The notes under the pieces were generated by a model. The model was not told where the DNA came from, did no database searches, and was given only the letters and a program-made list of their open reading frames with translations. A program made the position numbers and the translations under genes. A stretch of 64,000 bases of DNA from Moniliella sp. 'wahieum' (lineage: Eukaryota): NCBI GenBank assembly GCA_003971905.1, contig RSEE01000016.1, positions 124,001 to 188,000 of the forward strand. Reading direction: 5' to 3'. Position 1 is the first letter of the stretch, and each line of letters begins with the position of its first letter. Below are positions 1 to 63,391 of this stretch, piece after piece.

Positions 1-520
1 TGAAGCTTGATGCATGATGCATGATGCAGACGCGGGACTAGTGACCAGTGAGTGACTTGCGATGTGTGGCCCCACGTGGTCGGGACCGCGGGACCGGCGA
101 TAAATTCACGATTTGATGGACGAGAATCTGAGGCGCTGAGGCTGCTGGGCAAGGCCAACCCTTCATGGCGTGGGGCCAGACATTTGATTGGTCCGAATTG
201 TGGTCCGGACATTTGAGATGTTGTGGCTTGACGTAGTGGGCCAGAGTGAACCAGGTGAGGGCGTTGCGGAGTTTGCCTCCTCTGGCAAGTACCAAGTTAG
301 CGGGTAGCATCAATGTTAAAGAGCGTTGGCCCAGTGCGCTACCGATGTTTGGCGCCTATGTATGGGCCAGAGCCCCCACCGGTGATGCGTGCGAGCTCTG
401 TCTGTCATCGGTGTCACCGTGTCACCAGGCACCGGTCACCTGTCACCAAGTACACAGACCGGAGACAGCGCCCAGAACATTGATCATCGACCAAACCACG
501 TGGTACAATATAACCCAAAG

Positions 521-965
521 TAACCGGTGACTACTGAGTACTGAGTACTGATTAAATTACTGATTAATGATTAAGTCGATTAAGCTTAAGCTTTAAGGAT
601 TAACGATTCGTGACGCGTGACCCATGTTTCGGGACAAGCAGGGTGCGTCAGGCGTCACTCGTCACGCATGTATGGTCTCAGATGTGGTTCACCCGGTGAG
701 CGCTCAGTGAGCTCAGCGCTCAGCCGGAAACGGTTACATGCAAGTCATGCACTGCTGCAGATGCATCATGCATCACCTGCATCAACATCATACGCTCCAT
801 GCATTCTCCACACCATACCCATACATCACATGCATCACACATCAGCCACCCCAACCTATCTGACCGCAACGCTGGTCCCCATCGCCACGGATGGAGCTGA
901 GGAAGGGAGCAGATGGTAGGGCCAGCCATCAGGCCTGAGTCAGGCCTCAGGCCCAGGCCTCAGGA
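521..965. repeat. cluster of TRA + 4-bp-palindrome heptamers
   Basis: TAACCGG, TGAGTAC x2, TGATTAA, TAAGCT, TGACGCG, TGAGCGC/TCAGCGC, TCATGCA, TCAGGCC. Confidence 0.8.
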
Positions 966-3985: not shown

Positions 3986-5688
3986 TGGTGTTGATCGATG
4001 AACGATGATCAGCCATTCATTTATTGCCGATCATCAATCAACACATGTAATACACATGTGAGACGCGCTTGATGAGCTGGATGCTGGGCTTGCCCTGTGG
4101 CCGTTTTTCTTTCTCTCCCCAGAGCATGAAACATATTTTTCACCAATAACTATATTTTGTCTCCGTATGTGTGTCTCTGTGTGCTTTTGTTTGGGAGACC
4201 AGATAGCAATCGGTACCCGTATTACCCAGTACTCAACAGTACTCGGTATATCCTGGTTAAATAGTCAAAAACACATGACAGTGAACTCATGTCTCGACAG
4301 TGACTGTCACAGTCACCGGGGCTAAGGCGAGGGAGACCAGAATCGGGACTAGGCCAAGGGGTGTAGCAATCGTTCGTGGGGAAGAAGCAAGATCAGAGGA
4401 CATGGTGCGAAATGGAAACAGGGAAGGAGCGAGACGCTCGAGACGAAGAAATCGGAAATGGGAGCGAGATCAGCGCCAGCTGAACTATGACAGTGACGTA
4501 ATACTGTTGTTCATTTTTTAATTGCATGTGGCAGCTCGCGATTTGTGCACATAAAAAATGGAGATTGTAATAGTCGCGGGCGATACGAGTGGGGCCAAGT
4601 ACCAAGAGAAGCAACGGATGTGCTGCGATGGGAAAGGAAGAGGATCGGCGAAGAGAGGTGAGAAGATTTACCTGATTAGCTAATAGGACCGTGACGGAGA
4701 CAGTAAATTAAATACCTTACTTCCTTCTTGAAAAGGAATGTCTGAATCCTACTGCACGGTAACCGGTAACCGGTAAGGTCTAAGGCCTAAGGCTTAAGGC
4801 GTGACATATGCAAGGAATGCCCGAATCCCCAACCGAGCTTGGGATACGATACCAATGTCACTATCCCACGGTGTGATGTGCCACAAGTCGGCCAGAACGT
4901 CTCGCCAAGGCCTCTGCTGTTGGTCAGGCAAAAAAAATGCTTCTTGTATTACGTCTATTTTATCACATGTCTCACAAAATGACGATCTCTCTTGTGTCTG
5001 ACACAGCTTCATGGCGGTTTTATAGCTGTACTCACATCACTGTCTGGTCTTCTCGCAAGGGTCTCAGCTCAGCCTCCGTTACTATCGATTGATGCTTTGA
5101 CCACAGCGATAGGGTCGGAAATGAAGGAGGCTAAAAAGTTGGGCTCCGGAAGTGTGTGTAGAATGCCCGGAGGAAGGAGCTGCTGGCACGGGGCGGGCCC
5201 GCCAGGGCCTCGCTCAGGTTTGTGGGGTATACAATTTAAGAGACGGTAGGTACTCACACGGTAGTTTCGGGCTCGGCTAGTTGGTGCAGTCGTCGCAAAG
5301 ATACTGAAAGCTTGTGTCCTTACACTACCGACCCCTTTTTGATAGTGTACACGTCATCGATATCCACCGTGGCCTTGATGTCGCTGATGTCAGAAACTTA
5401 TTTATTCTGGCATCCAGGATGTCAGCGCCATCTCGGCTCCCCTTGCTATCCCTCGGGTCAAGGACGCGAGTGAGGTCAAAATCTGTTATCGGCGACCACA
5501 AGGACTCATGCCATCAGTTTCAAGCTTCAATGTGAAAGCAAAAGTCAATGGTCCCTGGATCTGCTTATGCAACCTCGATGGTGGCCGGTAAGGGGCAGGC
5601 ACCCTCGCATCGTATCTTGGGCGAGGCGATGGCCCCGTGTTCCGCGCGTGTTCCGCTGTTGACTGTGATCCTGCAGCTGTTCTTACCC

Positions 5689-6490: not shown

Positions 6491-6850
6491 CCCTAGAGAT
6501 ACGCGCTGGCTGGGTGGACTGGAACGTGGCACACATCAGCTGATGTAAAAGTGTACAGGGGCGGTTCCCATTTCCCGTTTTTTCACCCGGCCTCACGTAG
6601 TTCGAAGAGTACCGAGTACTGGTAGAGCTAGTGAAGCTTGAAGCTTGAAGAGCTAGTGAAGCGAAGCTTGAAGAGATTATCGATTGGCATGAGATCCGAT
6701 ATCGCAGTAGGTGATCAGTCGATGGCGCCGCAAGCAGCGGGCTGTACTGGTACTGAGTGTAAGGTGAATCCCACGGCATCACAATATGGTGGCGTGAGTA
6801 AAAAGGTTCTCATCGATCATCGGCCTGAGCAAAGGAGCAACTCAAATAAC

Positions 6851-7021: not shown

Positions 7022-7835
7022 TCGCCAAGTGGCGCCCCACAGTATGGTAAAGGCGTAGCGCAAAAGCGCGAAACCTTTCTGGTCATTCCTTCCAATATCC
7101 TTCTTAGGGGGCAGGAGTATTCTTTAGCCTCTGTATTTTCTTGACTCTTGATACGAAGGCGCTGCGATGTCTCCCGATGCAGAGCCCCTCATGTCATAGG
7201 CTTACTAGCACGTCTTCAGTCTACATAGGCTAGCAAGAGAGAGCTTATCTATCCATGCAGCTGGCATCCTTCGCAGCCCGCTCAATATATGGGCGCATGA
7301 GTACGATGCTTTGTTCCCATTGCGCCCACAGTCTTGGCAGAACCCTTTATCTGCTGCGGCCCACCGGACCGCGGACTTGACAGAACAGACTGCGCTTTAT
7401 GCCTTACTATTGTAGCTCTCTCTTGCTAGGCTATGTAGAGACTGAGTACTGACGTGTTTGGAAGAGATGCCTACGAAATGCGGGGCTCTGCGTCATGAGA
7501 GATACCGCAGCTCCCCGTAACATCTCTGTAGCTCATGCGCTCATGTGCAAAATTATGCAATACACCGTCAACTGACTGCTCTCTGGTCTTCCACATCATT
7601 ACTCAGCCCACCGGACACGGTCCGTGCGCTAGTATGTCCGTCGAAGCGGAGGGTGCACTACATAGTGCAAACACTTGCGCTATCTATATATACAGTTGGA
7701 GCAGGGTGTATACTAGGCCAAGTGCCAGTCGCCAAGTGGCGCCACAGTAGGGTAAAGGCGCAGGCTAAGGGACCCTTCCTTATCATTCCTTCCAACATTC
7801 TTCCTGGAGGGCAGGAGTATATTCTCTAGCCTGTA
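7022..7835 (+). repeat. ~110-bp imperfect direct repeats at 7022-7134 and 7729-7835
   Basis: TCGCCAAGTGGCGCC..ACAGTA.GGTAAAGGCG ... TCATTCCTTCCAA.AT.CTTC...GGGCAGGAGTAT..TAGCCT is present twice. Confidence 0.8.
7150..7524. mobile_element. MITE-like foldback element with ~100-bp imperfect inverted arms
   Basis: 7221-7245 CTACATAGGCTAGCAAGAGAGAGCT is 24/25 identical to the reverse complement of 7414-7438. Similarity extends outwards (GCAGAGCCCC / GGGGCTCTGC). No ORF. Confidence 0.65.
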
Positions 7836-9249: not shown

Positions 9250-9702
9250 ATAGTCTCGATGTCGACAGTGTCATCGGGAGACATTGATGTCGGGGTACCC
9301 GGGGACATCTATGCCATCGTTGGAGACCTATTACCCCTATGGTATCACCCACGTCAATGACACCGCCGACGTCTAAGCTCCCCCCGACGTCCAAGTCACT
9401 CACGACGTCTAAGGCACTCATGACGTCTAAGGCATCTTTGGTAGTGCTGTCATCGCGACATATTTGACGTGAACCCTATCATTGATAGGGCGTAACCCTT
9501 TGATGTTTTCCCCGATGTCTTTGATAAATTGAGCGAGTCTCGCATCCATGTCGCCAATGACATCCATTTCGTATCTGACATCATGGACATCACTACCGTC
9601 CCCGTCATCGAGAACAGCTGCGTTATTTACTTGATGTCTATGACACCAAAGTTCTGGTCCTACATCCATGACCGTCATGACCGTCATGACTGCCATGGAT
9701 GT
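9250..9702. repeat. degenerate 9/18-bp periodic minisatellite (GACGTC/GACATC cores)
   Basis: GACGTC at 9368, 9386, 9404 and 9422 (exact 18-bp spacing); CATGACCGT tandem near 9667-9690; many GACATC/GATGTC copies. Confidence 0.7.
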
Positions 9703-12239: not shown

Positions 12240-15095
12240 CATTCAAGCTTTCAAGCGGCAACTTCGTGGCCGCAGGCCTCTCAGGATCTCAGGCGCTCAG
12301 CGGCTCAGCGCTCAGCCGCTGATCCTAGTGGATCTGAGATCTGACATTTGCAGGCGGGAAGTGCGCGCAGATGCGCGCTCGCTGAGCGCAGCGGGTAGTA
12401 GACTGCGTCACGCGCCATTTCCCCCCACCCGTGGTGCTCGTTTGCAGGCAGTATGGCTGGTGCTTGGACAGTGCTTGGGCGGACTCTGCGTGACCGGTGT
12501 GACGCGTGACGCGTGACTTGAAGCTTGACCGGTGACATGCGCCTCAGATAGTCCCTACAGGTCTCTGCTCGCATGGGGGCTTGGGTCACATGCATCACAT
12601 GACACTTCCCTCGTGGCTCGGCACCCCCACACCACAGCCCCATGCAACCACACCATGTATCATTCATCGCCCGCATCCTAGCGACGCGTGAAGCGCGACG
12701 CCAGCACTCGGCCAAATGATGCACAGACATGATGCGTGATGCGTGATGCATGATGCGCGGCTCTGACGCATGATGTTTGTTGCATAAATGTGTGATGTGA
12801 CATTGGTGACTAGGTGACTGCGCCAAGCCAGCCGCACAATTTGAGATTCTGATATCCGAGGTTCTCAGAATTCACCATTCTGATGCTCGGCGCTCGGCCT
12901 CAGCCTGAGGCCCTCAGCCTGAGGCCGGAGGCTAGATACTGGCCAAGCCCCAGGCTTGACAAAGTAATACTCGCCGCTAAATTTCAGTTCACTCAGATCT
13001 CAGAACCACACAGCTGTGCAGAGTGACGCGTGACGCGTGACGAACGTACGAGTGACAGAACCGATTGAGAACGTTTGACGCGTTGTCTGCTGTCCAAACC
13101 CTTTGGTACTTTGATCCCCACCGGGCTTGTCGTTTCGCTTCTGAAAACGGAAACGGCATTGTGCCTCTGCCTGCCCCCCCCCCCCCCCCCCCCCCCCACG
13201 ATCCCGCGTCTTCCGCTGTACTTGCCATGTTCTCCATGTGCATTGGCATGATTGATAGTCCTCGCCCACAACAGATGCACTGGGAGAGATCCCACGATCG
13301 CACGTCGAACGTAGTGAAATCCGCGTTACAACCCTGGACTGATAGTGTAGAGTACCGATATAACGCGTAACGATAGCAGATGCATACGTTGGACACTGTT
13401 GAAAAAAGCCCCAAGTGGCAAGACTGGACAAGAGCCTGTCACATGTCCGCTGTCCGCGTTCAGCGCCACCAGCCACACCAGGCCACACATATGAGCGAAA
13501 CAGTATATAAGCTACTCAGATATCGATAACCGTCAAGCTTCAAATTCGTCAAACCGAGGACACCGTACGATCGAAAATGTAGACAGTAGCGGTTACCGGT
13601 TACCCATCTGATAAAACCTGCCGGCATTAACGAAAACAGGCACGTTGGCTTGGTGCCCCCAGCATACCCCCGCTTGGCAACTGTGTGTGTGTATATAGTC
13701 ACCGTATGTGACCGGTAAGCGCTAAAAGCGCGTCGCGCTCAGCTGAGCTCAGCGGTTATGGTAGTTTTCGCACTGTATAATGAACGACGCCGGTGAACTC
13801 CACGCCGCAGCCACTCCCACTCTGTACGCCCATCGTGCATCGTCTGTAGAGCCCACATTGTGCGCTACCCATTGCAAACCTTATATCGTCCTCCGCCGGC
13901 GCCTCTGCCCCCTATTTAATAACTATGGACGGGTGCGAGAGAGCCTTCTTCCATGTGGCTCAGCGCTCGGTTGCTCAATACGCTCTCTGAGATACTCACA
14001 GAATCCATATGGTCTTTTTTGGCCCCCCTTCTCTCCTGCGTGCTTACAATTGCTGAACGCACGCCGCCGCTGTGGGGACCGCGAGCGAGCAAGCTCTGCT
14101 CTGCAACGAAAAGCCGCACACCAAGTTGCGAGCGGCCAACAGTTCGTTGTCGCGGTAGTGCGCGTAGCGTTCAACCGTTCTGTACCAGTATACTACGGCA
14201 GTGTATACTTGGGCAGGCGGGGGTTGGTGCGGTTGATGCATGTGACGCGTTGACGCAGTTGTTGCGCTTGGGCTAAGCGCTGGGCTGATGCGCTGATGGC
14301 GCTGATGCATGATGCCCAACGCATATGTTCTGTTTGATCGATGATCGATGATCGATGACCGGGATGCGGTACCGTATCGACGTATCGACAACCGGCTGAT
14401 CATGCATCATGCATTGTGCATCCTGAGCTATTCAACGTTCGTTCAACGTTCAACCATCCACCGTTTGATAATCGTATCCGAACTATGCACTGCTCCCAGA
14501 GCCGGATCACCGGGATCACCACCGCCTCCCTCGAAATCGGCGGCGATGGGACGCGGGATGAATGTGATGAACAAGTGCGGACGATCGATGACGATGGACT
14601 GTCCCAGTCCTCTGTCGGAGAGCACCACCAGCCGAGTGCAAGCCATTTAACAGAAAAACTTGCGAATGAGCCGGGTGACCGGTGACTAGTGCCCGATGAT
14701 CGATGATCTGGTGATGCAGGTGATATACCCCGGCGTGGCATAGCATCTTGGAGGGGCTGGGGGCTGCCTGAAGTTCAAGCTTGAAGCTTGAAGCTTGAAG
14801 CTTGAAGTTTAACTGAACGCATCTCGGGTCTCCGGCCACTGGCGTCACCGCGTCACCGGGCGCTGCGGCCAGGGGCATACGTACGTTGGAGCGGTGGCGC
14901 CGTGCGGATTAGAGGCGGGTGGGTTGTGGCGCTGGCGAGGCCCGAGCAGACTGGCTGAGGCCGAGCCGCCCAGTGCGACCCCCCGCTGACCCCCCCGGGG
15001 CAGAGAGCTGCGAATGTCGCAAGCGTAACCGCTGACCGCTGATCGATGAGGCAGTGAGAACAGTGCCCGGATGTCACCAGTCACGCGTCACTAGC
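12240..15095. repeat. dense field of TRA + palindrome heptamers in the divergent AT3/GT2 intergenic region
   Basis: Examples: 12491-12539 TGACCGG..TGACGCG TGACGCG..TGAAGCT TGACCGG TGACATG; 14335-14358 TGATCGA x3; 14782-14802 TGAAGCT x3. Confidence 0.85.
13174..13197. repeat. poly-C/poly-G tract (~24 nt)
   Basis: Directly visible homopolymer. Confidence 0.9.
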
Positions 15096-23060: not shown

Positions 23061-24706
23061 TCACTTGTCCTCCGGCTCCGGAGCCAGTCCCTGGCGAGTG
23101 GCTTCAGTGGCACGAGTGTGGTGGTCGGGCGTAGCGGACTGGGTAGGCGCTGAGCCTTCCGAGACAGCGTCCTTCGCCGGGTCAGTGGCCATGCCCTCGT
23201 CCAAAAAGTCCTCGGTGGCCGGGTTGGGGTCAAACTCCACCTCCGGCTCGGAATCCGGTTGTTCTTCCGGGTCCAGCTCCACCGTCTCTTGCTTCCCCCA
23301 CGTCGCTGGCTCCGCCTCGTCGGTGGGGGCGACGTAGCAGGCGCCTCGGGAGTGGTCGCCTCCGTCACAGGAACACTCTCCTCCGACCCGGAAGCCAGGG
23401 CAAACGATTTGGGCCGGCCGCCGATTGCAGAGACAGCCTCCTTGCCCGGCAACGCAGCACGGTATTGCTCTGCGGTCCAAGGAAGGTGTTTCTTAGCGGC
23501 CATTTGCTGGGCCGCCTTGCCATCCGCGCCAAAGCTAACGGGGAACCCGAGCTTGGCAGACTCGACCACGTTGGGCGGGACCGAGTCCGGGTTGCCCCAC
23601 GGCAACGACTTGTCCCATGGCTCCGCCGTCTTTTCGGTCATGTTCGAGTAGCCTCCCACCTCTGCACCAACCGTCTTGGACAACCACGTCGAGGGGAAGG
23701 TGCGGTAGGTTGCACCGTTGGCCCGCTTGAGCTTGTTCTTGTTCTTCTGAGAAGCGGTAACATGACGAATGTTCACGGGCAAGTCGTCAAAGTAGGGTCC
23801 ACGCTACAAGGCACCAGAGCGGAAAGGGAAGAGGGAAAGAGGAGGGTCAGTATCAAAAAACAGCACATTTGCAACACGCCAATGGGCAAAGGAATGGGTA
23901 GCGTACGTTGGATTCAGCCACCATGTCATCAAAGCGGTCGAAAACCCACTTGATGTTTTGGTTCACGTTGGGGAAGCGGGCGCAAGAGATCTTGACCCAA
24001 CCCAAGCCACGCTCCAACACATCGTCCCACGACATGGGCGCCAACGAACGGTAGGGGGCCTTCTCGGTTCCGGGCATGTGGTTGAGAGCGTCCGTGCGCG
24101 AGGGGTCGTAGCGAGTAGCAGCAAGTTGAAGGAACTTTTTGCGAGCCTGCTTGGTAGGCAGCAACCCCGATGCAAAGAGCTTCTCGACCGGGAAGTCAAT
24201 GCGTGCCTTGAGGGTCATCGGCTCGTCCTTCGTGCCTTGAAAGTGCATGGTGCGCAGACGCAGGAAGTGATGCTTGTCCGGCACGCGGAAGGGCGTGACG
24301 AATTCTGCGGGGGATCAGGCGGGCAGAGAGGGTAAAGAACCAAAGTGAACATAGGCCGAATGGTTAGAGCTGAGGGGTTGCACCACAATCATCACGTGGA
24401 CGAGGGAGACCAGTACGCACGAGATAGCCTTGGCAGTTCGTTCTCCACCAAACGCGCATAGGTGGCGAGGATAGGTGGCGGTCAATGTCCTGGTGGGGGG
24501 GTAGGGGACATCCTGATCCAAAAAGTCGTACATCTCCTCCATGCGGTGCTCCGGCTTGGCACCGCGCTCGAGGAACCAAGAGCCATGGGAAGTGTTGACG
24601 GACATGGCTTTGGAGTGGGCCGCGGCGGACGTAGAGAAAGGGCGCGAAGGCCCGTGGCGGACCGAAGGGCGGGTGCCTGCCGAGAGACAGCGCGAGCGAG
24701 CAGCAT
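23061..24706 (-). CDS. RSM24: mitochondrial small-subunit ribosomal protein mS35 (Rsm24), with introns
   Basis: Presequence-like MLLARAVSRQAPALRS; FLQLAATRYDP, VKISCARFPNVNQNIKW and DLPVNIRH motifs; intron GTACGC..CTGAC..TAG at about 23803-23905. Confidence 0.85.
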
Positions 24707-25943
24707 GGCGCGCACGGGTAGACCTGGGAGGAGGTGGGACAGGGGGCGCCGCAGCCTCTGCTTGGGGCAAGAATGAATGAGCGAACGAAGATGAGGGCTG
24801 AGGACCACTTACGTCAGCCGAGCTTCCGGGTCTCCCCGCTGGTTCCGCCTTGGGTGTCAATTCCGAGCCGGCATGTCTGGGATGCGATCGGTGCAATGCA
24901 GGAGTGGCCGTGCTTGGGCTGCTGGGGGGCGCAGGCAGGCGCCGGACTGGCGCCGAGCGGCGCCGTGCACGGGCCCGCCTTGGGTTCGGTCGGCATGGGG
25001 GGTGCCGCACAGGGCCGCTCTCGGCGTGGCCTGAGGCGGGAGCGCGTGAGCAGCGGCAGCGGTGTGCGCTGGGGGGCGTTGCCAGCGGAGATACACCGTA
25101 CGGGGCTGCACTTGCCACGCCAGCCATCGGGGTCGCGGCCAGATGCGGCAGGGGGTGGCAGACGAACGGCAGACGCCGGCGCTGGCAGGGGGGGGGGAGC
25201 GGATGGCACCGAGACGCACTGCCGCAGTGTGTGGGAGACCGCGCGGCGGCGGTGTGGGCTGTGTGCTACGGCAGGAGGGGGCGGGCGTGTGGGCTGGTGC
25301 GGTGTGCGAGGCGGGCGCACGGGCGGGCGGCCGCAGCAGCTGGCGCTGCTGGCGGCGGGCGGGGCGGCAGGGAGCGGCGCGTGGCAGCCCACCGGCCTGC
25401 CCCGTTGGCTGCGCTCAGCTCTGCTCTGTTCTGCGCACAACCGCATTGCTTGCGTGCCAACCCTGCCACCCCGTCTCGCCCGTCTCCCTTGCCTGCCCCA
25501 CCGCGCGCCCACTGCAGCCGGCAGCGCCAGCACCTGCCAGCACCCCGCACCCCGCACCCCGCACCCAGCACCTCACCCAGTCGCGTCCAGTCAGCCAGTC
25601 TAGTCTGCTGCCTGCTGCCTGCTGCCTGCGGCCTGCTGCTCCACCCGTCTCGGCACCCGACACGCCGCACCGCCACAGCTGTCACCGGCACTGCCCTTGC
25701 GGCCTGCCGCGCCGTGACACCTGCCGCCTGCGCTGCCCTGCGCTGCCCCCGCTGCACTCCACGCCCGTCGGCTGCGTTTAGCGCTACACCCCCCTCCTCG
25801 CCCCGCGTGAGTGCCCCCTGCCCCCGCCCCGTGTCCACCGTGCCGCGCGTGCTGACCACTGACTGCACTGCCCTGCTGCCCTGCTGCCCTGCCTGCCTGT
25901 CCCAACCGCTGACCCGCCCCTCGATGCGTGCCTGCCCCCCAGC

Positions 25944-27135
25944 ATGGACCCTCCCGACGCCTTTGGCTTTGGCGCACAGCCGCCGCCGCTCCCGCCGGCT
26001 CCTTCCCGGCTACCCCAACCTCGGCTACGCGTCCCAGCACACCGCCCCACCACCAGCCACCCACCACCGCCCGCACCATCCGTCGGCGCATATGGCGCCG
26101 GCCGCCACGCCTTGCCCCCTGCCAACAGCATGTACCTGCCTCCTCGGCCGACCCATACCAGCAGCCCCCCGGCCAGGCACGGCGGCTGTCGGCCTATTCG
26201 GCCCAGTCCGCGTACTTCCCCACGGGCATGGTCCCCCCCAGCTCCCGCCCCAGTCGGTCGACTCCCTTCTGACCCCGTCCGCGCCCAGCCACAACCACGC
26301 CCACACCCCTATTGCGCGCCAAGCGCGTGCGGGCGACGCGCGCATGCTACCGCACGGCTACCCTCTTGACGACCCTCAGTCCGAAGCGGCAGCGGAGGCC
26401 GAGGTGGATCAGTCGCCCCCTCCTCCCATTCGGCCCGCGGAAAAAGCGTGCCGTGCCCGAGGCCCAAGAAACCGATGCGGGCGCATGTCAAGCCGCCGAA
26501 GCACGCCGTCGGCGTGGCAGCTCTTCTTTACTCAAGAGCTGGCACTGCAGCGTAGTGCCAATCCACAGGGACGACTCAACGTTGCCCATGTCTCCAAGGG
26601 CGCCGGGGAGAATACAATGCGCTGCCCGCGAGCGAAAAGGCCAAGTACCAAGCCGAGAGTCTCCGTCTCAAGGGAGAGTGGGAAGAAGCGATGCGCTTAT
26701 GGACTGCATCCTTGTCCCCCGAGGACTTAAGCTGGAGAATGCCTACCGCACCCAGCAGCGCAAGGCGGGTAAATCCCGCAAGGCCAACCTGAAGGACCCG
26801 CATGCACCCAAAAACCATTGTCGGCGTACTTTTTGTTCCTCCGCGGCATCCGCGCCTCGCCTGAACTTACCCAGAGCGTGTTTGCCGGCGCGGTAGGCAC
26901 CACGAAACAATCCATGCTGGCCGCGACCCGTTGGCGCGAAATGAGTGAGAAGGAGAAGTTGCCATTCATCACCAAGGCGGAGCAGGACAAGGTGCGGTAC
27001 GAACAGAGTCACAAAGTGTATGAGGCAGCCTTGGCCCGTGGCGTTCCCCCGACACCCATCGGTCGAAGCCAAGCAGGCCGGTTTGGCGGCCTCAGACCAC
27101 AATGGCCAAGTCGAGTCCGGTGGTGGCGCAACTGA
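25944..27135 (+). CDS. tandem HMG-box protein
   Basis: Box 1 SAWQLFFTQEL..LNVAHVSK; box 2 KDPHAPKK(P)LSAYFLFLRGIR...WREMSEKEKLPFITKAEQDKVRYE. Confidence 0.9.
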
Positions 27136-27955
27136 TTCAAGAGGGTTTGCCTCGAGGCATTTCGTTTGACCCCAGCTCCAAGGAGTTTGACGGTACCGCG
27201 GCGGCGGCAGAACGGGCGGAATAATAGGTACCCCCCCCCCCCCCCGCCGCTCTCCTCCTTAGCCTAGGTCGAACTAGGACACCCAAAACTCCTCGGTCGC
27301 ATTGCTGTTGTCTTGGGCCTGATCTTGCTGTGCGGTTGCGCTCCCCCCGCTCTTGGCCCCATCTTTTTCTCTGATCGATAGGATGCAGAGGGGGCCTGTG
27401 CCCCTCTTCCCTGTCTCGCCTACTATGTGTATGACCCCCCGTGTATTTCCCCCCGTTCCCTTGCCCTGACCCCTGACTCTGAACGTCGGGACGCTCAAGG
27501 CACACCCTGGCCGGTGGTGACCACAGGCAGACGAAGGTTACCCTGCTAAGCCCTCCTTCCTGTGCGGCTCTATTTGTACAAATTTTGTTGACTCCGTTCG
27601 TGAGGAACGAACCGCACCCTGCTTCATTTACAGCAGTATACATGCGATTTCGTTCTCTTTGCCCTCGATGTGCTTTGATTGTGCTTGATACGTATTATAT
27701 AATGCCGTGGCTAGCTCTAGCTGTCTCTACATTAACTTTCTGTGGCGCATCGTCCGATTCCAATGACAGGCATGTACGACGACCATGTGCCTCAGTGATC
27801 AAGTATGACTTTTGTGGAAGACTCCAAATAAGTGAGGGGGGGTAGATTGGAAGGCCCACAAGATACCAACGGAGAGTTATCTAAAGCAAGATCGAGGGAG
27901 AAGTAGGGAAGATATACAATCCGACACAGACGGTGCACCGTTCTCTCCGCTCGAC

Positions 27956-31422: not shown

Positions 31423-32621
31423 GTGGGCGAAGGTTAGGATTCGAACTGAACTTTCCTTGCTCAGGAAAGAACCACTCGGAGAAGTAGGGGGGGGGGTCGG
31501 AGGGGAGGTGGCTGCGAGGAAAGAAAGGTTAACGACCGCACGTGTGGCAAATAAGCGAGAATCACCGGAAGGCAACGTCGAACGCAAGGAGCGCGTACGA
31601 TGCTTGCCAACGAGGCCAGGATACGCACTTGGGATAGCGGGTAAGGATGGGATCCTTGGAGGAACAGAAGAAGAAAACGGAGACGCCGGGCAGCTTAAAG
31701 GCCATCATGTGGGGCGTGCAGTGCTCCAAAGCGAGCTCTAGGCCAGTGTCGACCAAAAATTGAAGGAAAATTTCAGCAGGGCGGCTCACTGCCTGTTCGG
31801 CAAGGGTTGCATGGCGTCTGCAACGCACTGGCCCTGTGCCGTCGCAGCAGCAGCGCACTGTTGGGCAAGAGCCGCAGCAAAGCGGAGGAGCACTGCCCCT
31901 TTGCTGTCGGGGTTCTCCGAAATGGCATCGGTGCATCAGCTCGGTTACGTGGCATTTGAAACTTCATAGTTAGTGAAAACGGAATATTTCAGGCTTGGCT
32001 GTGCAAAAAAATTATTGCCAAGCGACGTCACGCGTCACGCTTTACATGTCACACATCACACGTCACGTGCCAAGGCGCCACCACCAACGAGCAACTAGTA
32101 AGCGCCTGTAACATGTAACAAGCCGCCAAAACAACTCACTTCCCTGATCGAGATCATGCATCGACCCCTCCGTTGGGATCCTTGTTCGCATGTCATGCAT
32201 GTCACACCCCTCGTTTGTACCATCTCCCTTCTTTGCCTTTGCCTCCTTGTCTGCAATGCAAATAGACTTCGATACTTTGGCTACCCACTTCGCTTCCTTG
32301 CCTGAGGTGAAGGGGTGTTTCGCTTCTCTTGTTGACCTTCTCTGCAAATGAGATTGCCTTGAAGAGTTGCGGGTATCCCTTTGCCTCCTCACCTTACCTG
32401 GATCTGCCCCGCAGCTGATCCCACAAGGTCTCTCAATGTCTCCCAAGTCGTACTCTAGCACTCTAGTCCATTTACCGCAAAAACGGAGACACCGGTCTTT
32501 TCAGAACAAGAAAATAAGGTACGTGGAGGTCGGGGTCGGACCATAACGGGACCAGAACGGGAGCAATGGTGCTGTGCGAAAAGGACACCAGCAGGCAGGG
32601 GGATGCTTGTTGCTTGGATAA

Positions 32622-38844: not shown

Positions 38845-40126
38845 GGTGCGGGGAGAGAGTTGGGACGGAGAAGTAGAGGTGCTTGTTCGTCGCTGAGAGC
38901 GTCGCTGGGCGGGTGGGCATGACGAACTGGGGTCGAGGTAGGGATGGGGAAGGGGGGCAGGAGATGAAGGGTAGGGAATAGGCAAGCAGAACACGTGTCA
39001 GTGCATGCAAGAGCAGATGAGACGCGGAGGGTTGCGTGGAGAGGCGGTGCGAGGCAGAGAAGAAGAGAGAGACACACGGGCAGTAGCAGCCGCCATGGTG
39101 GGGCCTGTGAGGACGGGACGAGAGAGGAGGATAGAAGAGACAGCCGAAGCAGAATGGGGTGGTGGTGGGAGAGAAGGGGATGGACAGCCCCGTCGGGGGT
39201 CTGGGGGGTTGGGGCGGGAATGTGTGGGTTTTAGGTTGGTGGCTAGTACGGTGGATGATGCATGATGCATGATATATTGAGCAAGATGCTTGCCGCCTGC
39301 ACGCACTGCACCCCTGTGCTCAGAGTACGTGCAGCGGCCGACCCCCCGACAGCTCCTGGCGGCGCAGCAGCCAGCAGCAGGCCGCCGCTTAGCGCCGCTT
39401 AGCAGCCGGACCGGGGTTCGTGGGTTTTGGGTTGTGGCGACAGGTGGGGACCAGAGGACGACCAGGGGTCTATAATCGATCTAACATCCATCCCTATCAG
39501 CGCATATCAGCCCTCAAATCCAACATTCAACGTCGCTCACCGTCAAGATTCAATCCCACGTATAACAGTGGCAACAGCAAACAAGCGACCTGGATTGCTT
39601 CTCCCTCTTCGCACACGCATTTTAAAGGTGCAGAGCGCAGACTACGTATACATACCACCCGCTGTTTTGCCTACTTATACTTATCTGGATCCACGATGCG
39701 CAGGCATCAGCGCTCAGCAGTGCCCTGCCTGCCCAGCACCATCCTCCCGGCATTACCGGTTACCTAGGTCCTATACTTACCCCAGTACTTGACAGCGTCG
39801 ACAGCTTCACCGCGTCTTCTCGCTTCAATTCAAGTACCAGTGTGGAGCAAGCGGCAGTGAGACGTGACTGCGACGTCCTCACGTGTGACATGTGATGCAT
39901 GGCCAAATTACAATCATGATTTCGATGTCTCGGATTGTCACAAACATCACCTGCTCTCCACGCCACAATCTGCCCCACACTCCTCTCCCCATGAGTGCAT
40001 GAGCCACTTCCTCAGCCTCCCAGCCCATTCCGCTGGCCCATTCCGCGCTGAGCACCGCGCACAGACACGTTGCAGCAACCCGAATATAACCCCCCCTCCA
40101 TCACCATCTCCTCCTCCGCTGGCTTC

Positions 40127-40674: not shown

Positions 40675-41624
40675 TGTAACAATGGTGCGCTCATCCTCTT
40701 GGGTCATGGACTCGTTTTTCAACATGTCAACCCAGAATTATTGAAATGCACTGATATCTAGCAGCTCATCGACTTTGGCGTTGCCTTTCCGTTGCCCTCC
40801 TCGGCTAGGCACAGTGGAACATCTGATCCCACTTTTCTCAGGCCCCTAATTTTGTGAACCAGAGCCTGGTCGGCGTGCCTTTGTAAACGGCGATGGAGCT
40901 TTGTCTCTATTCAATATCCAAGGCCTCATGAGCACAGGTCGTTAGGCTTGCTTTCTCTCCAAGCTCCCCCCTTCGTTTCCCTTGGTCCCCGCCAACGCCA
41001 GCGCTGATACTACGGCACCCCCTTGATATGATAACTGCACTCCCCCTTCTCGGGGCTTGCAGTTGCATGCATCCATTCGAGCCAAGCACAAGACATGGCT
41101 TGCATTGCAGTTGAGTGCTGGCTAGTCCTTGGCAGACCGTCAAGGGTTGAGCTTGTGGGCGCAAAGGGGCTTCAAAACCCGTTGAAGCATCTGAAGTCAC
41201 CCTTCTATATAGCTCCCCACAAGTCCCTTGTTTTGGTCTTATCCCTTGCCGTGAGCGCGCTAGGTTGAGGCCTGAGGCTCAATTCAACCCACAGGCGTGA
41301 GCTTCCCTCTGGCCTGATCGATCTGATCGCCTATACTATTCAGGATGCAGGACGCCCTGAGCTGGCAGTCACACAATGACATTGCTTGAATGCCCTTTCT
41401 GTCGGTCTATATATCCCCCTGGCCCATAGGTACTCCGCCGAGGTTTAAGACAAAGGCATCCAGTCTTCAGAGGCTAAAAGCGGAGAGGCGTCTGAACGCC
41501 TGAATTATGAGGGACAGGAACCAGCCACTATAGATTCAGGCGTGAGCGCCTGCTCCAGGCCTCGGGCCCATAGGAGATCTGGATATAAATGAGCTTAATG
41601 AGCGAAGCGGCATGATCTGTGGGG

Positions 41625-42310
41625 AACTCAGATCACTCAGATCTCAGATGATACACATCAGGTACCGTTATCATGCACATGTGCATGACTTCACATTATA
41701 CTCACTCTCTCTATAGTGAGACTCTAGTGCATGATGTATGACGCGTGACGCGTGACGTTAGATTATCTCGACTATCGGCCGCTAGCAAAAGAGTTGACAG
41801 GGGTTGGCTCTGCGCCCACGCACCTGTAGGTAACGCAGGAGTGCTGTGGGAAGGTAGTGGTCGATGGGTCAAACGAAGCTGGGGGAGAGGAACCTTCGGC
41901 ATCTGGTCGCCAGCTCAAGCAGCACAAGCTCTGGCCCAGGCACTACTGTCACATAGTGTCACGCGTCACGCGTCACGCGTCACGCGTCACGCGGCATTAC
42001 ACTATGGATCACAAAGTCACGGAAAGTCACGCATGTCACATCGCGTCACCGATCTCAGCGCCTCAGTAGTTAACTAGTAAGGACCAGGTCTTGCAGCGTG
42101 AGAAGTAGGTTCCGTTGAACGTTGGAACGCGGATGAATCGATGACTACAATCCAAGGATGGGGAGCGGGTATTCTCGGTGTACTCAATCGTGGGAGTTGT
42201 GCGTGATTCGTGTCCAGATTCCCGGTTGGAGACGAGAGGACCAGCCAGGGTCGTCGCTCACGCGTCACGCATGAACGACCTCTGAGATCTGAGATTGAGC
42301 GGCTCAGCGC
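41625..42310. repeat. TRA + palindrome heptamer cluster upstream of GH32
   Basis: TGACGCG x2 at 41739; TCACGCG x5 at 41959-41993; TCAGATC/TGAGATC units. Confidence 0.85.
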
Positions 42311-42530
42311 AGAGCGGCTGCAGCTTGGTGCAGGCATCGCTACACTGGCGCCATGCCGGTTCCGAAATAGCGCTGCCGGTTAAATTTTAAAGTATGCCCG
42401 TGCCAACAGTGGCGCAGCGTTGGCTTGTAGCCGACGGGATCGGCTGTGCGAGCCAGCAGCAGCCCGCGGGGCGGGAACAGCGCTTTCATGATGAATTCAA
42501 GCCTGTACTTGTTCCACCACCCTCTCTCAC

Positions 42531-44607: not shown

Positions 44608-45446
44608 CAGCCGCCTAATCGAGCCTGAGTCTCCGTGGGCATATGCCTCATGCAGAGGCATGCGTGTTATGCCATGCCATTCCGACTGCCCAGCCTCACA
44701 GCACCCAGCAAAGGCCATGCCACACACATCCTGGTATGTGCCTTCGTGCGCGTTGGAGCAAGGCGGGAGGCAAGGTGCGAGGCTCGGTGGCAGGGAGTCG
44801 GGGGGGGGGGTAGATGCTTGAATCGTACTGAACGCTGAGCTTCCTCAACTAGACACCCGGCGCTAGCGAATGGCGGCGTCACGTTGCAACCAATCTGGCC
44901 AGCGTGCAATCCAAGCTCCCCTGTTCAAAGCGCACTGCACGCGCACTGAACGCGCACGCAAAGCAGGCAAAGACAAATCAATGCATTTGCATCCTGCCAG
45001 GCCTCCTCGCAGCATGGGTGGGGCCGACATCCAGCCATGACAAAACAGCGCGCGAGGCTAGAAGAAAACAGTTAGACCAGGGGAACAGGACAGCGCTGAG
45101 ACCGGGAATCGCACATAGGTCCGACGCCTACCTGGTGACTCGGGCCCATTCCGCACAAGCGCCACGCAAAACCGGTGCAAGGCAAGGCAAAATACTAGAA
45201 CGACGGCGAACAGGCGGTGAAACAGCCGGAGAGGCGTCGGGGGATCGGATGGACGAAAGAGTTTCAACAGCCATCAACGTTCAACACCAGGAAAGGTATA
45301 TGGGTACAACCGGCCGTGAACGGTGCATGGAAGGCGCCATAATCATTAATCATAGTGGGCAGGCTGGTCCGGCAACAGGAACAGCTCCCAGGCGGAGTGA
45401 AGTGGGCGGGGGGAAAGAGAAGAGCAGGCGGCAACCCACACGGGTG

Positions 45447-47248: not shown

Positions 47249-48030
47249 GGCGGGGGGGGGGGTGAGGGGGCGGAAGAGGAGGAGATGCAAGGTGCTGATG
47301 AAAAGCAGCGGGTGAGGCTGGGTTAGATGGGGGCGGCGAGGCTGCGCTGGTGCTGGATGTGATGCATGACAGGCAGCTGGGCCAGAGACACGGGGTGGTG
47401 ATCGCAGGCATCCCACCGCATCCCACCTGGCTGCGATGGAGATCTGAGGGCACTGGGATGCAGAGGCGCAGAAGCGCTGCTGCTCGCTCATCACCCGCTG
47501 CTCCGGCTCAGCGGCACCCTGTGGCCATTTCATTTCAGTAGCCACTGGGCCACCGCACGAAGACACCGTCGGCCGTCTGCGGCCCCGCTGCGACGAATGG
47601 GGCAAGTGCTGAGCACGCCCTCCCGCTCGCAGGTCATGTGACCAGCGACCCCCCGGCCCGACGGTGACTGGCCGCTGACATGGACGTGCATGTGACAAGC
47701 CAAGTGGCTCTAGTGACTTGGGCCGGTGCGGTGCTGCAGCCTGGTTCCTGCTGCGGCTGTCAGCGCTCAGCGCCAGCGGCCACCGGTCACCGGTCATCCA
47801 GCGCCGCTTAACCCCCCCGCAGCCGGCATGCTTATGTCAGCGCCGCCGCCCCCCGCTCCACTCGGCTCGGCTGGAGGACTACTTGGCCTCCCTGCAGGCC
47901 GCAGCTGGGCAGACAGCAGGGGGGCAGCGCCGCAGCGCACGCGAGCGCCTGGCAATATATATCCGCCTCCTTTGCCTCCTCCTCCTCCGCCTCTCCTCCG
48001 CCTCTGCTCCCACCCACCCCGCGCTTCGGC

Positions 48031-52945: not shown

Positions 52946-55706
52946 GCGCGTGGCACCGGTGGCAGGGGTAGGGGCTGGGGCTGGGGCTGAGTAGACGAGC
53001 AAGGGCCAGTCGAGTGCCCGCGGCCAGCTTAGACGCGGCGCAGGCAACGCAGATGGTGCGAGCGGGGCTGAGGATGGGCGGATGCTGCGAGCAGAGGCGG
53101 AGCAGCAGCAGAGGGTGGAGCTGCGCTCGCTTTGCGGCTGGTCTGGCAGGCGCTGTGTGGCTGGCCAGTTAATAGTTAGCTGGCTGATTGGCTGGCTGAT
53201 TAAGATGGCTGGCCCATTCAGCCAGCCAGCCTGCGCCGTGCTATCTGTGTGATGCATGTATGCATGCGATCACGAGCACTCAGCAGACCACGTGCCTGGC
53301 CCCTAATTTTAATTGCCTTATCGCCCCGTCTGGCCTCCAAGGCAACGCGGCTCGTTTCGCGACGCTTTGCTTCTCCCAAGCCGCGACCGAGTCGAGCCTT
53401 CCTCAAACTGCACTGATACCCCGCGCTGGCTCTGCCACTGGGGTGATACCATGTGAATGCGTTGCTTTGGAAGCCCCTTCAGGAACCTCACCCTTCCCCC
53501 TGGCTGGGCTCTTCAACCACTAATTCGGCTGGGAATGCGGAATGGGCGCGCTTCTGCGCAGGTGCTTTGGCCTGCTGGCGGGAGAGAGGGAACGGAGCAG
53601 GCTCTGGGACCAGTCATGCAAGAGAGTCGGCCCCGAGTAGAGCATAGGGGTTTGTCTCAGCACTGAAGCCCATAATGCATAATGAACAATCCAGGCTCAC
53701 ATGTACTGCGCGTAAATATGTTCCCATTGGTCTCTCCTTTCTTGCGTGCGGAGGAAGGTGAGGGAGGTCTACTAAAAAAATTGTGGCAAAGTTCGGTTTT
53801 CGGCCAGGGACATGAGGGCTAGATATGGTATGAAGGAACCGACGGAGTGGTATTTGTGGTCCCCTTGGTTGAAAGTGTGGAGATACCGTCCTGCTGCTCA
53901 GCGCCCGGGACTGGTAGAGATTCGCCATTGATCGCAAGCCGTCCGAAGGAGATCAAGGGAGCTGCATCTACCATGATATACGGGAGATGAGTTGAACCAA
54001 TGGGGTGTCGGTTCTATTATGCTCAAGCTGGCAGGTTTGCCAGAGATTCGAGCAGGCGAAGAACGAGATCGTCGGCCAAGGGTTGAGCTTCGAATATGAC
54101 CAAGGACTCGATGCCAAGGCATAACCCCCATCATTCTCCGAATCTGAATCCAACTCTTCGTCTGTATCGGACACAAACCGATAGATCCCCCTCCGCGCCT
54201 CATATCTGGTATGCAGGGGCATTTCATCTTGGTCCGGCATGGTACATCCCAGCAATCTGAAAGGTCGAAGGAACGGAGCCGACCGCCGTGGCCATGAGGC
54301 CTTTCCATATGGCTCTCATTTTCCCTCTCCCCACCGCTCCCTTGACGTAAAAACATAGAAGGATCCAGGGTTCGACGGCACCGTGCACGGGCAAAGTCAA
54401 AACGGTTGTGGCGCAATCGGCCATGATGTGAAATGTGGGCCTCGGTGCTCCAATCATGAGCTTCCTCGCTTTCATTCACGTCGCACACTTCCTCTGATGC
54501 GGACAGGTGTCCGTCTGCATTGCTTCACGCACCGCCTCGGTGGGATGGAGGGAGGAGGGAGTATTGCTTCCATGTTGCTCATGCTCTGGCAAGCAGAGAC
54601 CACTGTAGCATTGAGGTCTTCACCTCGCACCCAGGCAAGCACGTCCGGTACTCAAAGCAGCGTATTTCCACAGTGGGTTACCCGCATGGACCGCCTTGGT
54701 ATACCATCCCTCGTCTTGGGCCGGATGGAAGAGGAAAACGGGTTGGGCAAGAGGAGCAAATGCAGCTGGAGGGGGAGTACGAAGAAAGATTTGGTAGGGC
54801 AGTAGAGCTGGAGCCATCAGCCGTGAATTTCCCTACGTACATCAAGTTTCTGGGTCTTTCCCGCCGGTGGAAACGATGGCGAGCCCATAGGCAGGTGGGT
54901 GGAAGGAATCAGACGAGGATGCGGAGCTGGTAACGAACAGACCTGCAGGTAGATCGATGGGCGATCCGTCGAGCGCATCCATTCACCACTCGTGCCGGCA
55001 CCCATCACACACGCAGCGTACGGGCCGGTTGACTGGCCCAGGTCTAGTGCAGGACTGAAGGACATGGCATATGAGAGCGGCGCACAGCTGACCTGGCACA
55101 GACACGCTCCCCCGCGGGCCGTGCCCCGGCCGAGATCGACACGAGCCTGCCAAACATCAAGAGCTTCCCGCTTCACGCTCCAACGCGACCCGTGGAACGG
55201 GTGTGGTGACCGAGAGGCACTTGTCGCCGCGGCGCTCCGGAGACCCCAAGCGAGGGTTGTGTTGGTTTCCGATTGCTCGCTCAGGCCGGGTCACCCCGGT
55301 CACCGGTCGGGCCCTCCAGCTCAAAGCACCCACGTGACCGGGCCCCCCAAATGATGAAAGTTGAAATGCGAGAGGTGGGATAGATCTGAGAGAGAATCGA
55401 TCTTTCCCGCGAGCAGGCACCCTTAAAAGGCGACATCTATATAAGTAACCCACGCCCTTGGTCTATGGGCACCCCGGGCATTAGAGTGCGTCTTGTTCAA
55501 GATTCAGCTACGAGCTTTCCGTGCACAAACAGACGGCTTTGGGAATCACGATCGAGATGTCAGGTTGAGTGTAGTTCACATTGGGACACCATAACCACAT
55601 AACCACAGAGGCAGGAAAGACAGCAGCGACGGCCCGTATCAGGAACGGTAAAGAATGGATAGATGGCGGCAAAACCATCATTGGCGTTGGACCAGGGGTA
55701 TGCTCA

Positions 55707-57426
55707 TCATGATCCATCCCCTGGTTCTCCAGCTCCGATGGGGGTATCGGCGAAGTCTGCATTGCCATCGTCGATGCAGTGGTGGATCAGCAAGTGGGAT
55801 GTAGGCCTGGCGGCTGCGGTAGCAGGAGTGTAGGCATAGGGATAGGAATATGTTCTCTCCGGGGGGTACGTGTATCCCCCAGACACGGTGGAAGTGCGTC
55901 CGTCTGACGGGTAGAATGTAGTGTAGTCTGAAGCAGGAGCTGTGCTGTTGCCCACAGCAGGAGGAAGCTGCTGCTGCCTCGGCCGCCTCTCGCGCCCGCT
56001 GCTCTTGAAGCTCAGGCGGATCCAGGTGGGAATAGTCCGGGTAATGTAAGGGGCCGGATGGTAGCGCGCCACTCGTTGCGTCTGGAGCGGATGCGTCAGC
56101 CCCCGTAGATGTACGATGGTGCAAATTTCTTCCGCCTCCAGCGGCCCATCAACATCGTTGTCGATATCATGGTCCGTGTAGAGGTCAGCCAGGGCAGCAG
56201 TGTGCATTCGTGTGCGCCCTCGCCCCCAAGGGATCAAACGAAGGCCAGTGCCCACCCGCACTTCATTGAACGGGGTCCATCCGATCCCCAGACTTTGGTC
56301 GATTTCCAAAACACATAAAGTACGGGACCCCGTCCGGGCCTTACGGCGACGGAGGAGGCAAGCAGTAGCAAAAGGAGTGTCAAGCCGCTACGCCACCAAC
56401 CACCCCCCCACCGCGCTCCACCAACCCACCACTTGTCCCTCCATCATGGTGCGATGAGGCCAAGCCGCCTGAACTACGGTTTGAGTAACCATCACGACAG
56501 TAGTACCGGTGATGGGGATCAAGGAGCGTCGCTGTTCGTACTGGTCGAGGTGAATAAGCTGAGAAAACTGGAAGTATGAGTCGAAGGCGAGGCATTACTA
56601 GCCGATCGAGGTAATCGTGGGTGAGGTTGACGAAGAGAAGTTGGGCCGTAGGAGCTAGTGCTGTCTTTATGCGAGCTCGAGCTGAGGCCTGGCTGTGTTG
56701 AAGGTTGGGTCGTACTCGGGACTGGGAGGACGAATGCGTGAGCGGTTGGGTGGATGAGGCTTGACTGGACGATTGCACCGAAGGCTGGGTCGAAGACTGT
56801 TGAGTTGAGGACTGGGTAAGATCCTGAGTCGAGGGAGAGGTTGAGGGGGAGATGGAAGGGAAGAGTGGAAGGAGAGGTGGAAGGAGAGGTGGAAGGAGAG
56901 GTAGTAGAAGAGGTAGATAGAAGAGAGGTGGAAGGAGAGGTAGAAGGAGAGGTGGAAGGAGAAGTGGATCCAGGGGTGGAAGGTGAAGTCGAAGGCGATG
57001 TAGAAGGAGAAATGGAATCAGGCGTGGAAGGAGAAGTGGACGGTATTGTTGAATGTGGGACTGAAGGTGAAGTTGATGGGGTCGTTGATGCATCATCGGG
57101 CGTAGTGGAGGGGGAAGGAGTATCAGACACAGAATGATAGGCCGAAGAAGATGGTCCGTACTAGGGGTATGGATAGACGTGGGATCGGGGCAGGCTCGCT
57201 GTTGACGGAGGCGTTACTTTCTGTGTTTTCGCCTCCGCTTGGAGACACTGGCTGGCTGTGGGTGTCGTCTCCACTACCAGATGAACTGGCCTGCCGAGCA
57301 AAGATGGACGCTGAAGCATGCGCCTGCGCCTCTGCCCATCGGGCAACATTTGGGCCTAAGGTGGGAACTGTGCACACCCAGAGGATCGTCAGTCGCTAGG
57401 CCCACAGGACTTCACTGTAGTCTCAT
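55707..57426 (-). CDS. mucin-like type I membrane protein with PSTS repeats (may be a pseudogene)
   Basis: Ser/Thr/Pro ectodomain; TM-like GGVVGGVAA-LTLLLLLL followed by LRRRK; Tyr/Pro-rich tail; N-terminal frame interrupted. Confidence 0.55.
56833..57075. repeat. 12-bp coding minisatellite GGAAGGAGAGGT (PSTS on minus strand)
   Basis: Tandem copies directly visible. Confidence 0.9.
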
Positions 57427-63349: not shown

Positions 63350-63391
63350 AGAACAGAACAGAACAGAACAAACAGAACAGAACAGAACAGA
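63350..63391. repeat. (CAGAA)n microsatellite
   Basis: Directly visible. Confidence 0.85.

Follow-up and report, generated by a model that had tools for sequence, protein, structure and literature searches.

Palindromic seven-nucleotide arrays in a 64-kb stretch of Moniliella DNA follow a T-N-A rule and may be excision scars of a hairpin-forming, transposase-like activity

In a 64,000-nucleotide stretch of DNA from Moniliella sp. 'wahieum' (contig RSEE01000016.1, positions 124,001 to 188,000; the whole stretch is referred to here as the window), short arrays occur in which a T-N-A trinucleotide (N being any base) alternates with a self-complementary tetranucleotide in steps of 7 nucleotides (nt). 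Here, we confirm that this 7-nt pattern is real, rule-governed and far beyond chance. The palindrome is templated by the 2 nt beside the TNA, mirroring the flank, and the elementary product is ab-TNA-b'a'-ab-TNA-cd or its mirror image, in which 5 nt are repeated and 2 nt are inverted (b'a' is the inverted form of ab) with a net gain of 7 nt. We lean slightly towards reading the arrays as the accumulated excision scars of a hairpin-forming cut-and-paste element, or of a transposase-like activity, whose target would be 7 bp long and centred on T-N-A; the agent itself we infer from its products.

A sequence-only reading of the window had described arrays of TRA (R being a purine) followed by any 4-nt palindrome in strict 7-nt phase, and the arrays were indeed found where it had placed them. 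When both strands are counted, the tetranucleotide between two TRA is palindromic in 79 of 149 cases. Between two TNA it is palindromic in 84 of 183, while 100 third-order Markov simulations of the window gave 7.2 (standard deviation 2.9, maximum 14), and the enrichment of palindromes over background that had been foreseen is thus present. Fourteen of the 16 possible cores are used: all twelve that had been reported from the sequence, together with ACGT and AATT (ATAT and TATA are absent). The commonest cores account for 9 of 67 independent loci each, therefore the signal cannot be reduced to one or two motifs. The view that the arrays are a mutational scar and not a conserved motif is supported. 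Parts of the earlier description had to be changed. Exact tandem arrays of period 7 do dominate (46 versus 4.0 simulated), and in 31 of these 46 the unit can be rotated to TNA plus a 4-nt palindrome, where 2.7% would be expected under uniformity; however, the phase is not strict, since 8-, 9- and 10-nt variants occur on the same sites, and exact arrays of period 8 are also in excess (11 versus 0.8 simulated). The palindrome rule likewise holds, but its TRA anchor does not. The central triplets of the palindromic period-7 units are TGA (25), TCA (21), TAA (6), TTA (4) and others (7); the excess of G or C at the TNA centre (46/56) roughly tracks the availability of the triplets, which makes T-N-A, with N unrestricted, the anchor.

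The origin of the palindrome was sought in the sequence beside it. In the 52 chains with two TNAs, we compared the far half of the palindrome with the 2 nt that border the chain. They agree at the right end in 20 chains, at the left end in 11, at both ends in 9 and at neither end in 12. Thus, at least one flank matches in 40 of 52, where chance would give about 1 in 16 for each side; the 12 chains matching on neither side are at about the chance level, and 5 of them carry unlike TNAs. The fold-back palindrome that had been proposed is therefore retained as an addition resembling the palindromic (P) nucleotides of hairpin joints, but its sequence is not free, as the 2 nt next to the TNA template it. 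The same is seen from the repeats: abTNA followed by 2 nt and a second abTNA occurs 112 times (3.9 simulated), 88 of them with the inverted prefix as spacer, while abTNA repeated with a spacer of 0 nt occurs 9 times (5.65 simulated). Conversely, among 129 positions of the form abXYZ-b'a'-abXYZ, XYZ is TGA, TCA, TAA or TTA in 88, and the remainder is mostly the alternative register of TGATGCA and TGATCGA arrays. Any ab is allowed and only T and A are obligatory; in the ancestral targets reconstructed for 31 one-sided events, nothing is fixed but T at -1 and A at +1.

The modal state is a 12-mer, that is, 1.7 units. The lengths of period-7 match runs are quantised, with an excess at 5-8, none at 10-11 and further runs at 12-14 and at 16 or more; successive additions of 7 nt onto a 5-nt repeat would yield these lengths. 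At least two added units are present in 11 of the 61 runs with the same N. Neighbouring units often have unlike cores, as in TGA-AGCT-TGA-TGCA (1-24) and TGA-AGCT-TGA-CCGG-TGA (12519-12535). Perfect loci number 50 (0.3 simulated) and those that break the rule once number 32 (7 simulated), therefore older, decaying scars exist; this tail is as expected for a neutral scar that builds up over time, which it suggests. At 12885-12898, GCTCGGC occurs twice, with palindromic arms and the centre TCG, and this may be a scar with a mutated central A or an exception to the T-N-A rule.

The nucleotides lost on one side mirror those gained on the other side, as can be seen from the product classes listed here (loci observed, with the simulated number where given, for a target abTNAcd; the classes overlap where the target is itself palindromic).

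+7, one copy lacking 2 nt and the other with 2 inverted nt added: 31 observed, 0.2 simulated; mirror image: 39 observed, 0.15 simulated
+8 classes: 5, 7, 6, 2 and 2 observed
+9 classes: 5, 3 and 1 observed
+10, with 2+1 inverted nt: 2 observed, 0 simulated
+11, with 2+2 inverted nt: 0 observed
+5, a trimmed copy without inverted bases: 3 observed, 1.95 simulated, and 6 observed, 2.1 simulated
+3, both copies trimmed to TNA-TNA: 44 observed, 43.4 simulated

Products without inverted bases are not enriched. Moreover, among two-copy arrays with non-palindromic, TNA-centred units, none of 11 is an exact 7-nt duplication in register without inverted bases, therefore the inverted bases are obligatory. 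The rarer products disclose the full length of the duplication. Direct repeats of 7 nt whose 2-nt spacer is inverted from the right copy number 8 (0.2 simulated), and those with the spacer inverted from the left copy number 7 (0.35 simulated); the TNA stands at positions 3-5 in 5 of the 8 and in the centre in 3 of the 7, while the chance of a central TNA in such repeats is about 4.5%. It is central in both products with 2+1 inverted bases, GCTTAGC-GCC-GCTTAGC (39387) and TATCAGC-GCA-TATCAGC (39495), and the site GC-TGA-TG at 14284-14315 bears +8, +9 and +7 products in series. Accordingly, we read the duplicated target as 7 bp, nnTNAnn, rather than as 3 or 5 bp. The duplication of a trinucleotide that the sequence-only reading had put forward does not hold, given that the common product repeats 5 nt and the rarer ones the full 7-nt abTNAcd, and that TNA-TNA itself shows no excess. 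Two other geometries were tried and rejected. A 5-bp duplication fits the common 12-mer, but it does not account for the 7-nt repeats of the +8, +9 and +10 products and requires an asymmetric target with the TNA at one end. Complementary centres (TGA..TCA), which would mean a 4-nt opening of the hairpin, occur in few chains and their flanks do not fit.

The arrays had also been described as lying outside coding regions. This holds within open reading frames supported by Pfam, the only frames on which our statements about coding location rest: none of 56 rule-conforming runs falls in their 9,695 nt, versus 8.5 if the runs were evenly spread. In this G+C-rich sequence (57% for the window), neither long open frames nor codon-usage scoring nor the 3-base periodicity of G+C separated coding from non-coding DNA.

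In the scar reading, insertion of an element would duplicate the 7-bp target nnTNAnn, with T-N-A at its centre. Since an element that inserts and is later excised gives two ends, each with a full 7-bp copy of the target, both flanks would then end in the complete abTNAcd, and they would be closed as hairpins exactly at the element border, hence the even palindrome. A host nuclease would open each hairpin about 2 nt off the tip, so that 4 nt, 2 original and 2 inverted, would remain as a 3' overhang, and end joining would keep and copy one overhang and clip the other at the duplex junction (7 - 2 + 2 = +7). Either flank may be kept, which would give the two mirror-image types, and if the clipped side were trimmed by 3, 2 or 1 nt instead of 4, the +8, +9 and +10 products would result. 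Since the centre has T and A on its two sides, a hairpin opened 2 nt off the tip would give the same sequence as one opened 3 nt off, and in the latter case the ends would then share a 1-nt A:T microhomology; the class for a one-nucleotide opening is also inseparable from the 2-nt class. Every scar would recreate TNA sites, so that later hits would lengthen the chain in phase, and the kept flank may vary between hits, which would place unlike cores in adjacent units. Slippage could also add units once at least two are present. A scar within a coding sequence would throw it out of frame, and selection would eliminate it, which would fit the intergenic distribution.

Even palindromes from a hairpin closed at the border are typical of RAG and Transib, and in the window the joints read b'a'|ab, which are even palindromic additions. 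What a hairpin footprint should leave is found here: both copies of the target duplication are kept (7-nt repeats at 9 TNA-centred loci with inverted spacers, and 5+7 nt in the most frequent product), and what is added at the joint is an inverted copy of the adjacent flank (88 of the 112 spacers and 40 of the 52 chains). In the accessible text of PMC5499845, hairpins on the flanks are attributed to hAT, Transib, MULE and RAG enzymes, and that of bioRxiv 10.1101/2023.08.20.553239 describes a nick-hairpin mechanism for RAG/Transib-like elements. As with the P nucleotides of V(D)J joining and with Transib/RAG-like excision, the flanks here seem to have passed through hairpins whose opening off the tip leaves inverted additions, in our case usually of 2 nt and at most 3. 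However, the outcome in the window is far more uniform than at the coding joints of V(D)J recombination. The duplications made by RAG, Transib and RAG-like elements are 5 bp long according to the same source (bioRxiv 10.1101/2023.08.20.553239), whereas the target here is 7 bp centred on T-N-A.

The footprints of Ac/Ds and other hAT elements, for which our comparison draws on plants, budding yeast and Candida albicans, also retain both target copies, with small deletions and palindromes at the joint, and are explained by hairpins and end joining in the text available to us (PMC5873905). The palindromes of Ac/Ds are odd there, centred on a base complementary to the one bordering the element, while those in the window are even. 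Odd products of the hAT type at TNA-centred 7-mers number 12 versus 3.55 simulated, which we count as not enriched, and the even type occurs at 31 and 39 loci; palindromic excision of the canonical hAT type, which had been invoked as a precedent, is therefore not supported by the products. Furthermore, hAT duplications are usually 8 bp and the one found here is 7 bp. Closer in this respect are two basidiomycete DNA transposons with 7-bp duplications, hAT7 from the rust fungi (Pucciniales) and Kyakuja from Laccaria (PMC12730594, as far as its accessible text goes); this length is common to both of them and to the scars, within the same phylum. The same text groups hAT7 with the hairpin-forming hAT elements and gives Kyakuja the ends CA..TG, which are those of the clade of CACTA, Transib and relatives, while the target preference and the excision products of the two are undescribed in the portions of its text and supplement available to us (PMC12730594). 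Neither hAT7 nor Kyakuja was found in the 64-kb window.

The accessible text of bioRxiv 10.1101/2023.02.20.529178 treats short direct repeats in ribosomal spacers as transposon remnants, likewise with non-coding DNA that fills by insertion and departure; no strict 7-bp rule, inverted bases or in-phase chains are evident in that text. PMC9942834 contains only a 5-bp retrotransposon duplication and has no bearing on the 7-nt scars. No description of the pattern was found in the literature on palindromic heptanucleotide repeats, 7-bp target duplications and excision footprints.

Several observations weigh against an excised element as the source. No transposase domain was found in 132 scanned frames (20 + 112) of the 176 frames of at least 130 amino acids. 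A search of the window for inverted ends flanked by duplications of 5 to 9 bp gave 16, 9, 4, 0 and 0 candidates versus 21, 3.4, 1.0, 0.4 and 0 simulated, none of them convincing. For a transposon scar, about 50 perfect loci in 64 kb amount to a high density. Flanks that match on both sides (14-mers) make up 9 of the 52 two-TNA chains, versus about 2.5 estimated for a random target. In the accessible text of PMC5873905, Ac/Ds left 28 types of footprint in 128 Candida revertants, and the almost exclusive outcome seen here, with one end kept and one clipped, is more stereotyped. Finally, by a rough estimate the frequency of two-unit arrays is near that expected from re-hits, but arrays of four and five units exceed what independent re-hits would give at the estimated per-site rate, therefore slippage or strong local re-insertion is needed; probably slippage helps the longer arrays to grow.

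Some of these points would be accommodated by a resident nuclease, for example a domesticated hairpin-forming transposase, which would make 7-nt staggered breaks at T-N-A, with fill-in, inverted bases from hairpin or turn-around synthesis, and rejoining, and with no mobile element involved. We regard this as a possible source, although a doubtful one. It is favoured by the lack of any element or transposase found in the window, by the very high density of scars and by the unusually uniform spectrum of products. However, no enzyme is known to us that produces 7-nt staggered breaks and afterwards closes both filled ends as hairpins, whereas target duplication followed by excision accounts for both full copies and the hairpins in a single step. 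In Basidiomycota, moreover, the accessible text of PMC12730594 documents elements with 7-bp duplications.

If the scar reading is true, the genome would hold a natural archive, in one format, of excision-and-repair events, with about 50 intact scars in the 64 kb of the window. These scars would reveal how hairpins are opened (about 2 nt off the tip) and how mismatched ends are joined (one kept, one clipped) in a little-studied fungus, and would indicate a very active element whose target is a 7-bp T-N-A sequence, an element of which we found no description in the literature. They would also provide a concrete route for the birth of short tandem repeats and of palindromic promoter motifs; no paper describing this route was found. 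A wholly new DNA-writing system would be more surprising than the scar reading, each of whose chemical steps has a known precedent. It is nevertheless conceivable, though we think it unlikely, that the units are written by the cell: a resident RAG/Transib-like hairpin-forming nuclease, or a new transposon superfamily with a 7-bp T-N-A target, would recurrently break and reseal accessible non-coding DNA and add one 7-base palindromic unit per cycle. Should this be so, the steady creation of 6-bp palindromes (A-N4-T, such as ACGCGT) and of short repeats in promoters would amount to a built-in generator of regulatory variation.

The arrays could also be ordinary microsatellites, in which quasi-palindromic heptamers form hairpins and expand more readily by replication slippage. 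Arrays do reach 5 units, and slippage is the simplest route of growth for those that already have at least two. However, the commonest state is the 12-mer of 1.7 units, which is beyond what slippage can create; T and A are obligatory at fixed positions, so that the unit must be ab-TNA-b'a'; the +8, +9 and +10 variants with inverted spacers are not products of slippage; and adjacent units often differ in core. Growth by whole units of unconstrained sequence is thus not what is observed, and we judge slippage improbable as the origin of the pattern.

Still less probable, in our opinion, is a regulatory lattice kept by selection in promoters for putative protein binding, consisting of bZIP-like TGA/TCA half-sites or of A-N4-T palindromes such as the cell-cycle box ACGCGT. 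The arrays do lie outside confirmed coding sequence, and the process does generate 6-bp palindromes, ACGCGT included. A cluster of transcription-factor sites would conserve one core, whereas here the commonest takes 9 of 67 loci among 14; in addition, the neighbouring 2 nt dictate the core, the decay tail suggests neutrality, and a 7-bp spacing of identical sites is to our knowledge not a binding geometry that has been described.

The source to which the earlier reading had looked, a PIF/Harbinger-like element with a 3-bp TNA duplication and a free fold-back palindrome, is excluded as far as the 3-bp duplication is concerned, and we give the hypothesis very little credence. In its favour, PIF/Harbinger elements target TWA (W being A or T), which TNA resembles. 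The mPing element, in turn, is reportedly repaired precisely at its excision sites, judging by the title of one study, which counts against this source. Canonical Harbinger elements do make 3-bp duplications in the accessible text of PMC12730594. The direct repeats measured here are 5-7 nt and not 3, there is no excess of TNA-TNA (44 versus 43.4), and no 3-bp TWA duplication is found; 46 of 56 units have G or C at the centre, and hairpin bases from a flank that ends in TNA would read TN' and not b'a'. An assembly or sequencing artefact is hardly worth considering, as the rule is specific to sequence, confirmed coding DNA is free of the arrays and decayed copies exist.

The scars of the window are listed below by position; a number in brackets is a position within the entry, and x gives the number of copies.

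1-28: in-phase chain TGA-AGCT-TGA-TGCA-TGA-TGCA-TGA-TGCA, with TGATGCA x3 at 8-28
532-551: (AC-TGA-GT) array of 2.9 copies, core GTAC
561-597: TGA-TTAA-TGA-TTAA; +9 product GATTAAG-TC-GATTAAG (569-584); TTA-AGCT-TTA-AG (586-597)
609-621: single event CG-TGA-CG-CG-TGA-C
711-724: two full palindromic units, GC-TCA-GC-GC-TCA-GC
761-775: ATGCA-TCA-TGCA-TCA, core TGCA
824-839: +9 variant, 7-nt direct repeat CATCACA with TCA central and inverted TG between the copies
940-953: TCA-GGCC-TCA-GGCC
4757-4793: (CGG-TAA-C) x2.9, then C-TAA-GGCC-TAA-GGC, TAA-centred
6632-6650: TGA-AGCT x2.7
7441-7452: minimal 12-nt event AC-TGA-GT-AC-TGA
12303-13042: cluster of 7 rule-conforming runs (12303, 12331, 12499, 12517, 12744, 12992, 13023) with the cores, in order, GCGC, GATC, CGCG, AGCT, TGCA, GATC and CGCG; CCGG, in the chain at 12519-12535, stands outside these seven runs
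12730-12749: exact 7-nt array of CGTGATG, in the 12303-13042 cluster
13361-13725: TAA-CGCG-TAA-CG (13361); CGG-TTA-CCGG-TTA-CC (13590); chain TGA-CCGG-TAA-GCGC-TAA (13709)
14284-14315: graded series on GC-TGA-TG, namely GCTGATG-C-GCTGATG (+8), GCTGATG-GC-GCTGATG (+9) and TGATG-CA-TGATG (+7)
14335-14807: cluster of TGATCGA x3.4 (14335), TCA-TGCA (14399), TCA-ACGT (14440), +9 product GATCACC-GG-GATCACC (14505), GG-TGA-CCGG-TGA (14674), TGA-TCGA (14694) and TGAAGCT x4.4 (14777)
15080-15091: G-TCA-CGCG-TCA-C
32026-32120: CG-TCA-CGCG-TCA-CGC and TG-TAA-CATG-TAA-CA
39255-39895: TGATGCA x2.7 (39255); +10 variants (39387, 39495) with inverted bases from both flanks; single events (39707, 39753, 39884)
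41266-42391: cluster before the GH32 frame, with scars at 41266, +9 products at 41588 and 41626, a scar at 41636, TGACGCG x2.7 (41739), GTCACGC x5.1 (41958), and scars at 42113, 42258, 42281 and 42380
45274-45353: TCA-ACGT-TCA-AC and TAA-TCA-TTAA-TCA-T
47760-47796: TCA-GCGC-TCA-GCGC and CACCGG-TCA-CCGG-TCA
55289-55308: +9 variant GGTCACC-CC-GGTCACC, which overlaps a period-7 run
57678-57692: ATCGA-TGA-TCGA-TGA

An inverted repeat at 7220-7439 has arms of 26 nt, 96% complementary and 168 nt apart, with the outer ends CAGTCT...AGACTG. It has no matching flanking duplication, and the 12-nt scar at 7441-7452 directly adjoins it; the repeat could be an ancient miniature element or a gene for a hairpin RNA.

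The genes of the window include a PMR1-type Ca-ATPase, a GH32 glycosidase, a WD40 protein, emp24, ARP2/3 p16, a DEAD helicase and a GT2 transferase, and the introns are of the fungal type (GTACGT ... CTGAC ... YAG). The PMR1-type Ca-ATPase (59197-62300) is 47% identical over its first 626 residues to the nearest named homologue, from the smut-related yeast Tilletiaria anomala, and 62% identical to a protein from a public assembly. On these identities we take the source to be a basidiomycete, and its lineage seems to be poorly sampled. When the Ca-ATPase was used as a query against metagenome contigs, none of the 193 pattern-matching stretches encoded a relative.

The window also contains repeats of other kinds. 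The region 24000-26700 has 69% G+C and several long overlapping frames (up to 642 amino acids) with no Pfam match; its short C-rich repeats (GCACCCC, CTGCTGC, CTGCCCTG), of which there are many, do not obey the TNA rule. A 9-nt repeat (CATGACCGT) of 3.6 copies at 9666-9697 holds TGA and TCA, but forms a plain array of this period that is possibly coding. An 18-nt repeat of 3.8 copies lies nearby, at 9367-9434. Homopolymers of C extend over 24 nt at 13174-13197 and over 15 nt at 27231-27245. At 56826-57040, a tandem array with a 12-nt (GGAGAGGTGGAA) and 37-nt period, in about 17 copies, runs through long minus-strand frames without a Pfam match, and an array of the pentanucleotide AGAAC, in 9.6 copies, occupies positions 63346-63391.

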